Origin: a virus
Taxonomy: Duplodnaviria; Heunggongvirae; Uroviricota; Caudoviricetes
IMG/VR virus record: IMGVR_UViG_2671180296_000011
Span: 1-23,719 of that record
Direction: 5' to 3' (one strand)
DNA: 23,719 nt
Shown here: positions 5,972 through 7,378 of the stretch, piece after piece
How positions within the stretch are numbered: position 1 is the stretch's first letter
How the letters are laid out: each line of letters opens with the position of its first letter
Position numbers and translations under genes: made by a program
Notes under the pieces: model-generated
Seen by the model: the letters and a program-made list of their open reading frames with translations, nothing else
The model's database searches: none
Told to the model about the DNA's origin: nothing

Positions 5972-7030
5972 TCATCCGTTCTGACTGACTAAATCCTGAA
6001 CTTCCTTGACCGTCTGCTCAAAACGCTCAGTCTCCAGCTCAACGCCAATTGCACGACGTCCCAGCGCCATCGCTGCTTTGACCGTCGAACCCGACCCCAT
6101 GAAAAAATCTGCAACCAGATCTCCCGGACGACTGCTTGCGCTGATTATCTGCTGCAACATTTCTGCCGGTTTTTCGCACGGATGTTTCCCGGGATAGTAC
6201 TGCACCGGTTTATGCATCCACACATCGGTGTACGGCACCTGCACAGTCACACCGAAATACCGCCGCAAATTTTTATATTCTCTCAGCAGTTCCGTATACT
6301 GCCGGTTCAGTTCACTGTATGTGCTGACCAGCTGGTGGTGTGGCTGCTCCAGTTCACCGCGCTGATGTTTTTCTGCTGCAACACGCGCAAACAACGCCTG
6401 CAATTTGTTGTAATCAGCTTCGTTCGGTAACTGCCACTGGCGGGCACCAAACCAGTGCGACACCATGTTTTTCTTTCCGGTGGCTTCCGCTATCTGTTTC
6501 GACGTTATCCCCAGTGATTCACGCGCATCACGAAAGTAAGAAATCAGCGGAGACATCACATGCTGTTTAAGCTCGCGCTCCTTTGCCGCATAGCCGCCAT
6601 TTTTTGGCTGGTATGGCCCCTGATAATGTTCAGCAAACAGAATACGCTCTGTGGCGGGAAAATACGCCCGCAGGCTTTCCTTACTGCACCCGTTCCAGCG
6701 TCCGGACGGCTTCGCCCAGATGATATGGTTCAGCACGTTAAAGCATTCGCGCATCATGATTTCGATATCAGATGCCAGGCGATGACCACAGAACAGGTAA
6801 AGACTTCCGGCGGGCTTTAATACCCGCCAGAACTGCGCCAGACACTGGTCCAGCCATTTCAGGTAATCATCATCGCCCTTCCACTGGTTATCCCAGCCCT
6901 CGGGCTTCACTTTAAAGTATGGCGGGTCTGTGACTATCAGGTCGACAGAGTTTTCCGGTAAGGCCTGGATAAACTCCAGGCAATCAGCGTTGATTAACTC
7001 ACAACTGGATATTTTTACAGTATCAACCAT
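5972..7030 (-). CDS. orphan DNA methyltransferase (beta-class N6-adenine/N4-cytosine type)
   Basis: 352 aa with DPPY motif IV near the N-terminus (LIVTDPPYF) and FxGxG AdoMet motif I near the C-terminus (FFMGSGSTVKAA). No restriction endonuclease gene adjacent. Confidence 0.8.
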   Translation of the reverse strand: MVDTVKISSCELINADCLEFIQALPENSVDLIVTDPPYFKVKPEGWDNQWKGDDDYLKWLDQCLAQFWRVLKPAGSLYLFCGHRLASDIEIMMRECFNVLNHIIWAKPSGRWNGCSKESLRAYFPATERILFAEHYQGPYQPKNGGYAAKERELKQHVMSPLISYFRDARESLGITSKQIAEATGKKNMVSHWFGARQWQLPNEADYNKLQALFARVAAEKHQRGELEQPHHQLVSTYSELNRQYTELLREYKNLRRYFGVTVQVPYTDVWMHKPVQYYPGKHPCEKPAEMLQQIISASSRPGDLVADFFMGSGSTVKAAMALGRRAIGVELETERFEQTVKEVQDLVSQNG

Positions 7031-7171
7031 AGATCAATAAGCACTTCTCTGATAGGCTCATACCGCTTTTGCGCAAAGCAGATGGGCCTGAGGTTTGCTT
7101 GTGACCCCAACGTATGAGCAGATGGCTGGCAGGTGCCGCTAACACCCACCAGCCGCCCATTACCACAAATT

Positions 7172-7192
7172 AAAAAGCCTTCACTGCGGAAG
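7172..7192 (-). terminator. candidate rho-independent terminator (minus strand) after small regulator-like gene
   Basis: GCCTTC-ACTGCG-GAAGGC hairpin followed on the minus strand by TTTTTAATTTG. Overlaps the stop of the 7181-7378 ORF. Confidence 0.4.
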
Positions 7193-7378
7193 GCGTCTGT
7201 AACAACCGAACTGATAATCTGCCAGACCCGCCATAACAAGCTGGGTCAGTATTAACTGACAGCGTTCGCGTGAAAGGTAAGTATTCTGCGCAATTTCCCC
7301 GACGGTCGCCGGTTCGGTGACACTTAATTCATTAAACACCACTCTGGCGGTTTCGGTCATATCCTGCTGTTTTAGCAT
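7181..7378 (-). CDS. hypothetical small protein (65 aa), possible winged-helix DNA-binding protein
   Basis: Internal Met start MLKQQDMTETARVVFNELSVTEPATVGEIAQNTYLSRERCQLILTQLVMAGLADYQ with AAGGGA upstream. HTH-like sequence pattern only; family not recognised. Confidence 0.35.
   Translation of the reverse strand: MLKQQDMTETARVVFNELSVTEPATVGEIAQNTYLSRERCQLILTQLVMAGLADYQFGCYRRLPQ

Follow-up and report, generated by a model that had tools for sequence, protein, structure and literature searches.

Closest described systems

The DNA considered here is a window of 23,719 nucleotides (nt), the whole stretch that was analyzed, from a virus of the Caudoviricetes (IMG/VR record IMGVR_UViG_2671180296_000011, positions 1 to 23,719). 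Its subject is a methyltransferase (MTase) gene on the minus strand and the conserved, structured leader RNA that adjoins its start codon. The closest described enzymes are M.EcoGII and M.EcoGI of an E. coli O104:H4 C227-11 prophage, likewise prophage-borne orphans with the same beta-class layout of a DPPY motif, a central target recognition domain (TRD) containing a helix-turn-helix (HTH), and an FxGxG motif. M.EcoGII methylates adenine whatever the surrounding sequence (Murray et al. 2018, PMC5778455). Its constitutive expression is harmful, it is not expressed in the lysogen, and its family is very large in E. coli prophages, with phage 1720a-02 included as very similar (PMC5778455). Its TRD has been modeled as a four-helix bundle, and the enzyme reportedly dimerizes and has a TRD similar to Xre-type repressors (PMC11551740). 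The regulatory context seen in the window, namely a Q late operon, flanking terminators, a winged-helix gene, and a leader, is absent from the published work on M.EcoGII (PMC5778455).

A second comparison is with phage Mu, in which Com is a translational activator of the toxic mom gene; com also precedes alpha-class, non-specific MTases of Mu-like prophages (PMC3299994). Like the window locus, com-mom and the Mu-like com-MTase operons (hin1523, nma1821, hia5; Drozdz et al. 2012, PMC3299994) carry a toxic, broad-spectrum, anti-restriction modification gene that is late and apparently gated at translation. Distant relatives of the window MTase have Com-like open reading frames (ORFs), several with the same leader before com, whereas the window has no Com ORF and its leader adjoins the MTase directly. 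The enzymes differ as well: Mom is an acetamido-transferase and the Hia5-type enzymes are alpha class, while the window enzyme is a beta-class methylase. To our knowledge, no structured leader has been described upstream of com in Mu.

The late cargo regions of Shiga toxin (Stx) and lambdoid phages, for example the one around L23-L24 of phiP27, have a gene order identical to that of the window (Q, pR'/tR', cargo, the tRNA genes ileZ/argN/argO, stx, and lysis genes), except that TerB and DUF3927/TciB-like genes fill the stx slot in the window. Finally, Type II restriction-modification (R-M) systems with C (controller) proteins resemble the window in having a small, putative DNA-binding gene upstream of the methylase. 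They differ in that the window has no nuclease and has a terminator between the two genes, and in that its small protein is predicted to be winged-helix and its methylase, judged by its relatives, to be non-specific.

What does the window add to these systems? The methylase finding is itself ordinary, and the added value lies in a conserved, unannotated leader and in the four-part logic of the cassette. The locus is probably a late-operon DNA-modification cassette consisting of an M.EcoGII-family MTase that would be Q dependent, with the leader as a gate on its translation. The first-pass annotation of the region had paired the methylase with a small upstream gene of 65 codons. From sequence comparison, the element invariably tied to the methylase start codon appears to be the structured, noncoding leader and not the 65-amino-acid (aa) gene.

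A conserved structured leader RNA

A spacer of 150 nt separates the small ORF from the MTase ATG, and across genera it is conserved at least as well as coding DNA, despite single-base indels. The leader and its helices, all on the minus strand, are as follows.

7031 to 7165, minus strand: conserved structured leader RNA of about 135 nt adjoining the MTase AUG (covariance model and covariation)
7155 to 7159 with 7083 to 7087, minus strand: helix P1
7143 to 7154 with 7124 to 7135, minus strand: helix P2, 12 bp
7114 to 7120 with 7096 to 7102, minus strand: helix P3
7075 to 7079 with 7065 to 7069, minus strand: helix P4
7056 to 7061 with 7037 to 7042, minus strand: helix P5

RNAalifold together with inspection gives a three-way junction, in which P1 closes P2 and P3, followed by the hairpins P4 and P5. 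The 3' end of P5 falls 6 nt before the MTase AUG, and no Shine-Dalgarno (SD) sequence is found near that AUG in the window. Leaders from other loci have a median identity of 74% to that of the window, and the neighboring gene differs at about half of its third-codon positions. The leader is present in about 44 of the 46 genome loci in which the MTase is at least 61% identical, including about 15 from which the small ORF is missing.

Is the pairing conserved, or only the sequence? In a structure-blind MAFFT alignment of 43 sequences, 86.1% of cells form a standard pair, compared with 31 to 43% when the 3' partners are slid, and 18 pairs have changed on both sides, compared with 4 to 10 in the slid controls. 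None of 500 shuffles attains the observed pairing values in this alignment. The closing pair of P3 illustrates the pattern, being C-G in 19 sequences, U-A in 11, and A-U in 5. In a model-fitted alignment of 54 sequences, which leans towards the covariance model, both sides change in 33 of the 36 pairs. Covariation thus supports the leader as a conserved structured RNA across the Enterobacterales. The covariance model scores the window at 119.3 bits (E value about 1e-30; 7025 to 7165, minus strand) and also finds group B, another MTase clade (58% protein identity), in whose leaders the P2 and P4 sequences are wholly different yet complementary.

On the opposite strand, only fragments score with the covariance model, and the leader contains conserved G-U pairs; for both reasons the structure is placed on the mRNA strand. 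An exact-pattern scan for the core motif of the leader found the MTase at a fixed distance, 51 to 53 nt downstream, in 77 of 78 viral contigs, and the element therefore appears specific to this MTase family. Within the three-way junction, 22 unpaired columns are at least 95% conserved. Rfam gave no match at gathering thresholds over the whole window, and with E values of up to 10 allowed for 6950 to 7450 it gave only chance-level matches (E values of 4.8 to 7). Judged by Rfam and by the literature that was searched, the structure is apparently new.

Two further ideas about the leader were considered. A Chi site (GCTGGTGG) lies at 7146 to 7153, within the invariant 5' arm of P2 (another, at 7462 to 7469, lies within a conserved block 5' of the small ORF). 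Chi was rejected as the cause of conservation: lineages that lose Chi retain the pairing, and so structure, not Chi, explains the conservation of P2. Pairing of GGUCAC in the P3 loop with GUGAGCC as a pseudoknot was also dropped, as its changes, followed by eye, are not consistently compensated.

The P4 hairpin (7065 to 7079, minus strand) has a self-complementary center in every lineage, with GCGC, UGCA, UCGA, GUAC, and GAUC as the variants. It is often a perfect palindrome of 12 to 16 bp; the related loci are L005, L138, L147, L151, L213, L238, L399, and L403, and the observation comes from reading the alignments by eye.

A methyltransferase of the M.EcoGII family

The gene that the leader precedes, with its principal features, is listed here.

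5972 to 7030, minus strand: gene for an M.EcoGII-family, beta-class N6-adenine DNA MTase of 352 aa (Pfam and M.EcoGII alignment)
6917 to 6928, minus strand: DPPY catalytic motif, residues 35 to 38 (direct sequence reading)
6320 to 6553, minus strand: central insertion relative to the Pfam profile, counterpart of the M.EcoGII TRD (Pfam and the PMC11551740 model)
6089 to 6103, minus strand: FxGxG motif, F310-M-G-S-G314, which binds S-adenosylmethionine (SAM) (sequence; aligns with solved beta-class MTases)

The protein matches Pfam N6_N4_Mtase with an E value of 5.9e-45, in two profile halves split by an insertion of about 100 aa that itself contains a weak HTH_3 match (residues 167 to 193, Pfam). 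DPPY is N-terminal to FxGxG, the beta-class order, and the earlier recognition of a beta-class enzyme from these two motifs was borne out: the enzyme is intact, DPPY is invariant among the MTases of the protein alignment (A2), and FxGxG aligns with that of solved beta-class MTases. Its closest solved relatives (M.RsrI, CcrM, M.MboIIA, and DpnA) are all beta class. RefSeq labels its homologues simply "DNA-methyltransferase," and PADLOC and Pfam place it among the Type II MTases.

Compared over its full length with M.EcoGII, the central TRD included, the window MTase is identical at 310 of 349 positions (about 89%) and similar at 329. The comparison sequence was machine-read from the PDF supplement of PMC11551740 and contains a few evident read errors, so the real identity is probably slightly higher. 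By homology, then, the window enzyme would be a non-specific N6-adenine DNA MTase of the M.EcoGII family. This agrees with the earlier suggestion of a phage anti-restriction methylase and makes the enzyme, as judged from its sequence, one of an already-known kind that is orphan by nature.

Com-linked relatives

More distant MTases, 37 to 55% identical to that of the window, occur in Vibrio, Shewanella, Acinetobacter, and an unclassified gammaproteobacterium, and are preceded by an ORF resembling the zinc ribbon of Mu Com (present in L140, L141, L144, L147, L151, L399, L402, and L403). Three of these ORFs score above the Pfam PF10122 gathering score, at 48.0, 34.7, and 33.8 bits; in the window spacer, no PF10122-type Com zinc-ribbon ORF was found. 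In six of the loci (L147, L399, L402, L403, L144, and L151), the covariance model finds the leader with 20 to 46 bits (E values of 3e-11 to 4e-4). In these loci the leader extends up to the start codon of com, and the order is a small winged-helix-like ORF, leader, com, and MTase; the MTase of L147 contains in-frame stops. Since com follows the leader in these distant cassettes, the leader heads an operon whose translational control is, in other settings, known or presumed. A scan of viral contigs with the L144 MTase mostly returned the enteric clade, group A, again. With hhalign, the enteric 65-aa protein could not be shown to be homologous to the Vibrio-like proteins of 82 to 98 aa in the same position (E value 0.027, probability 1.8%).

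The winged-helix gene and its flanking signals

Immediately 5' of the leader are the following features.

7172 to 7194, minus strand: intrinsic-terminator-like hairpin and U-run, directly 5' of the leader and overlapping the stop of the 65-aa ORF (terminator scan)
7181 to 7378, minus strand: gene for a 65-aa winged-helix protein, phrog_331, function unknown (PHROG, homologues, and codon bias)
7404 to 7440, minus strand: promoter-like conserved block 5' of the small ORF, CTTGCTG ... AGAGGTATTGGTATGTCA, also read as CTTGCTG ... AGAGTTATCTGTATGTCA (conservation)

Does so short an ORF encode a protein? It matches phrog_331 over residues 1 to 64 (E value 1.4e-37) and has 334 homologues; among the best 120, identity never falls below 81%, and the genera represented are Escherichia, Shigella, Salmonella, Klebsiella, Citrobacter, and Buttiauxella. 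Substitutions fall on codon positions 1, 2, and 3 in the ratio 194:151:607 over 18 pairwise comparisons. On the strength of the PHROG match, the homologues, and the third-position bias, the ORF is taken to be a real gene, and its coding nature, which had been a question for the earlier proposal, appears settled.

The Pfam matches of the protein are all to winged-helix families and all below threshold (TrmB, E value 0.0026, 18.0 bits against a cutoff of 25.6; MarR_2; DprA_WH). Its AlphaFold2 model (predicted local distance difference test score, pLDDT, 71.7) looks winged-helix-like, with short strands, three main helices, and a further short helix at the C terminus. When this model was compared with the PDB by Foldseek, every match was a winged-helix protein (ArsR/CzrA, MarR/OhrR, SelB, Z-alpha), with a best E value of 0.37 and none significant. 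The protein is accordingly modeled as winged-helix and not as an Xre-type C protein.

The terminator that had been assigned to the ORF was found again, as a hairpin of GCCTTC-CGCAGT-GAAGGC at 7177 to 7194 followed by TTTTT, with the T-run reaching 7172. Nearly every locus has an equivalent hairpin, of freely covarying sequence, whether or not the small ORF is present. The promoter-like block is conserved in at least 20 loci across genera, most of which have a further terminator before the block. Because it has this block of its own and terminators both before it and at its end, the small gene looks like an insulated unit, as far as such signals can be read from sequence.

Linkage of the small ORF to the MTase was seen in 69 of the 74 viral contigs with room to judge. 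It is missing from about one third (about 15 of about 44) of the species-representative genome loci that keep the MTase and leader, and it would thus appear to be a frequent but dispensable accessory of the cassette. Most likely the protein is a nucleic-acid-binding regulator of the cassette. The idea that the methylase is under its "own small regulator" is unproven: the protein is winged-helix-like, its fold is not that of a C protein, a terminator separates the two genes, and the gene is absent from about a third of loci.

Other arrangements 5' of the MTase were seen. Some Kosakonia-type loci without the winged-helix gene (L106 and L112; 2058 to 2297) carry, 5' of the terminator, leader, and MTase, a cysteine-rich ORF of 79 aa that resembles a zinc ribbon and matches nothing in Pfam. 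In the Klebsiella prophage L006 (5001 to 5883), the small winged-helix ORF is kept, no MTase is called after it, and TerB lies 690 nt downstream, which suggests that small ORF and MTase are separable by deletion. In the metagenomic contig L401 (1155 to 1260), the leader is followed by an MTase whose frame is broken at a run of seven A's, through a sequencing error, a pseudogene, or slippage.

Distribution of the cassette

The cassette was found in 2,365 of 5,426 complete E. coli genomes (about 44%), with up to seven copies per genome. The nearest complete E. coli genome is 99.6% identical to the window locus; phiP27 (TrmB-like L23, methylase L24, ileZ/argO) is 93.5% identical at the DNA level, the homologous locus of phage 1720a-02 89.6%, and many Stx2 phages, in which stxAB lies 3' of the tRNA genes, about 90%.

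As the first-pass annotation had noted, no nuclease gene adjoins the MTase in the window, the neighbors being tRNA genes, the 65-aa ORF, and a 239-aa ORF without a Pfam match. None adjoins it in the examined Klebsiella, Salmonella, Buttiauxella, and E. coli loci either. The nuclease-less cassette lies behind Q proteins of three Pfam families (Klebsiella, Salmonella, Buttiauxella) and recurs in hundreds of viral contigs and in prophages of many genera. From this distribution, the cassette appears modular and orphan.

Proposed mechanism and alternatives

How might the parts work together? Late in lytic growth, the MTase, to judge by its homologues, would hypermethylate progeny phage DNA and so let it escape from many host restriction systems. 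In the lysogen the gene would be kept off, because non-specific methylation harms the host. Since the gene lies downstream of Q, of a pR'-tR'-like unit, and of a second intrinsic terminator, it would be transcribed mainly by Q-modified, terminator-resistant RNA polymerase. The leader would then gate, in cis, the start of translation at the first ORF of the methylase operon, a control functionally analogous to the Com-dependent one of mom in Mu and possibly responding to a protein or small ligand, and the winged-helix protein may be an accessory regulator. Gating of a toxic enzyme's translation by the leader is thus a proposed mechanism that we infer from sequence.

Several points weigh against this proposal. 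(i) The transcription, folding, and translational effect of the leader are all deduced from comparing sequences; the structure was derived from the same sequences that were used for counting, and, because these share ancestry, significance judged against the shuffles is too high. The weakest of the helices is P5, with 79 to 85% of cells paired. (ii) The two alternative pairings that could form a switch, AUCAG/CUGAU (P5 loop) and GCUCAU (P3 5')/GUGAGC (P5 5'), are complementary in 79 to 86% of cells, no better than in shuffles. (iii) The distant, Com-linked leaders carry SD-like sequences near the AUG, so that simple absence or occlusion of an SD sequence may not be the common mechanism. (iv) The leader is missing from Proteus-type relatives, in which the MTase and a winged-helix ORF are accompanied by an ordinary SD sequence. 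(v) The self-complementary center of P4 is needless for a simple hairpin and may be a DNA operator or a site of loop-loop RNA dimerization. (vi) The window allele is about 11% divergent from M.EcoGII, and its non-specificity is assumed.

Could the leader itself be a sensor? It might be the aptamer of a new riboswitch or protein-binding class that turns translation on only in the right state. In its fullest form, this idea makes the leader a new regulatory RNA class, with an aptamer-like junction, a self-complementary-loop hairpin, and a start-codon-proximal helix, that would license translation of the MTase (or Com) only in lytic growth by sensing the winged-helix protein, the methylase, or SAM or S-adenosylhomocysteine (SAH). 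The three-way junction, with its many conserved unpaired columns among covarying stems, its position directly before the start codon, and its lack of a match to any known Rfam class are all consistent with such a role. The leader also co-occurs with small winged-helix-like ORFs even in the distant, Vibrio-like cassettes, and some winged-helix domains bind RNA, SelB, one of the fold matches, among them. However, no ligand is known, the alternative "expression platform" pairings lack covariation, the leader is retained where the winged-helix gene is missing, and the enteric and Vibrio-like small proteins are not demonstrably homologous (hhalign E value 0.027, as mentioned). A sensing RNA is therefore entertained only tentatively, in either form.

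Another possibility, and an unlikely one, is that the 135-bp spacer acts not as folded RNA but as a double-stranded promoter or operator bound by a dimeric protein, either the winged-helix protein or the HTH-bearing, dimeric MTase. P4 is what invites this thought, as it is a perfect or near-perfect palindrome with a self-complementary center in every lineage (GCTTTAGCGCTAAAGC, GCGATGCGCATCGC, TGTGCACA, GCTCTGCAGAGC, and CTGTGATCACAG), and the spacer holds long, invariant sequence blocks; the reported dimerization of M.EcoGII and the likeness of its TRD to Xre-type repressors (PMC11551740) fit as well. An operator would not, however, explain the long-range and long-stem pairings of P1, P2, P3, and P5 with their compensatory changes, the 12-bp P2 being completely rewritten in group B, nor the conserved G-U pairs, which become A-C mismatches on the other strand. 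A scan of the spacer found no sigma-70-like promoter. In several lineages, 1-nt bulges break the dyad symmetry of P4, and loci lacking the winged-helix gene keep the palindrome as it is, both of which argue against an operator for the winged-helix protein.

It is very improbable that the spacer is instead read as a short peptide whose translation is coupled to that of the methylase downstream. In the window, an ORF of 47 aa (7023 to 7166) does extend across the spacer and stops a little beyond the MTase ATG, and many loci have an ORF ending in a TGA that overlaps the ATG (...CTATGA). This reading was rejected because of single-nucleotide indels between lineages, the different frames of window-type and majority-type ORFs relative to the ATG, and a lack of start codon conservation (GTG, TTG, or ATG, or none at all); stops interrupt the frame in some loci, and the substitutions fit base-paired helices and not codons.

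Least credible, and already largely refuted, is the earlier suggestion of a remnant, in which the methylase would have outlived the nuclease of a Type II R-M system and the 65-aa protein would be the system's C protein, for although PADLOC and Pfam group the enzyme with Type II MTases, a small putative DNA-binding gene lies upstream, and phiP27 has a GIY-YIG nuclease-family gene two genes upstream, the same nuclease-less layout recurs in hundreds of prophages of many genera behind three Q families, with no adjacent nuclease in any of the loci examined; the closest characterized enzyme, M.EcoGII, is non-specific and orphan (PMC5778455), and a non-specific methylase has no cognate site-specific nuclease; the small protein is modeled as winged-helix and not Xre-type, its gene is separated from the MTase by a terminator and is missing from many loci; and the phiP27 nuclease gene sits in a variable cargo slot, whose occupant in the window is an unrelated ORF of 239 aa.

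The late operon around the cassette

Gene order places the cassette, with its proposed translation gate, in the late, Q-dependent part of a lambdoid prophage resembling Stx phages. Followed 5' to 3' along the minus strand, the features are Q, a pR'/tR'-like unit, the 239-aa ORF, the 65-aa ORF and its terminator, the 150-nt spacer, and the MTase, followed by a tRNA cluster, a terminator, TerB, a DUF3927/TciB-like gene, an STnc100 homologue, holin, lysozyme, and Rz. The original placement in the late region is thereby upheld, the genes lying downstream of Q and upstream of the holin and lysozyme genes. The remaining features are these.

8512 to 9333, minus strand: antitermination protein Q gene (Pfam Antiterm, E value 1.6e-49, and a DnaJ-type zinc-finger match)
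8405 to 8506, minus strand: putative late promoter pR' (TTGATT-16 nt-TAAATT, 8506 to 8479) and tR' (hairpin 8431 to 8412 and U-run) (scan and eye)
7553 to 8272, minus strand: 239-aa ORF, phrog_1521, function unknown (PHROG match; no Pfam match)
5647 to 5931, minus strand: tRNA cluster 3' of the MTase, including a terminator at 5647 to 5664
5856 to 5931, minus strand: tRNA with anticodon CAT
5765 to 5845, minus strand: degenerate tRNA-like sequence between the two called tRNAs
5678 to 5754, minus strand: tRNA-Arg with anticodon TCT
2613, 4968, 6331, 7146, 7462, 10076, 10128, 10534, 10592, and 21515: Chi sites

The tR' comes from a terminator scan, while pR' was read by eye after the Q stop codon and is hence putative. 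The pR'-like sequence has an upstream TG, and two terminator-like hairpins follow the Q stop, the stronger at 8431 to 8412; together, promoter and hairpins would yield a short, 6S/StxS-like transcript. The slot between Q and the small ORF is a variable cargo slot, occupied by the 239-aa hydrophobic protein here and by the GIY-YIG nuclease-family gene in phiP27 (L001, 6965 to 8194).

The tRNA cluster corresponds to ileZ/argN/argO of Stx phages. The degenerate sequence at 5765 to 5845 has a cloverleaf-like fold and is called by neither ARAGORN nor Rfam; its RefSeq equivalent, "tRNA-OTHER," matches argN of Stx phages. Downstream, the TerB-family and DUF3927/TciB-like genes (4912 to 5504, minus strand) fill the exact slot of stxAB in phiP27. 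The closest E. coli relative has stx2g in the slot of the window TerB, with flanks 99.6% identical, which illustrates cargo exchange.

Three known RNAs were also recognized. The small RNA STnc100 has a full-length Rfam match of 148.7 bits at 4648 to 4846 (minus strand), between the DUF3927/TciB-like and holin genes and thus in the late operon, while a hok/sok-type sok antitoxin RNA (116 bits; 11776 to 11950, minus strand) and the small RNA DicF (73.8 bits; 18914 to 18965, plus strand) lie elsewhere in the prophage. Chi occurs 10 times in the window, against 0.7 expected from shuffles, with 7 of the 10 on the minus strand.

Implications

To label the window MTase an R-M remnant would be a mis-annotation. 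M.EcoGII-type methylases are widely used as tools, in MadID, in DiMeLo-type chromatin mapping, and in SUPREM. The literature only presumes how prophages silence a toxic, non-specific MTase ("transcriptionally silent"). The insulated late-operon position and a leader fused to the start codon provide a concrete, testable model of that silencing, one that is linked to Com-like activators in distant relatives. If the leader is indeed a regulatory RNA, then an unannotated RNA family would be present in about 44% of complete E. coli genomes, Shiga toxin phages included, and the leader would be a potential handle for controlling the expression of M.EcoGII-type enzymes. And if it should prove to be a sensing RNA, it would constitute an RNA-based safety catch conserved from the phages of E. 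coli to those of Vibrio and Acinetobacter.

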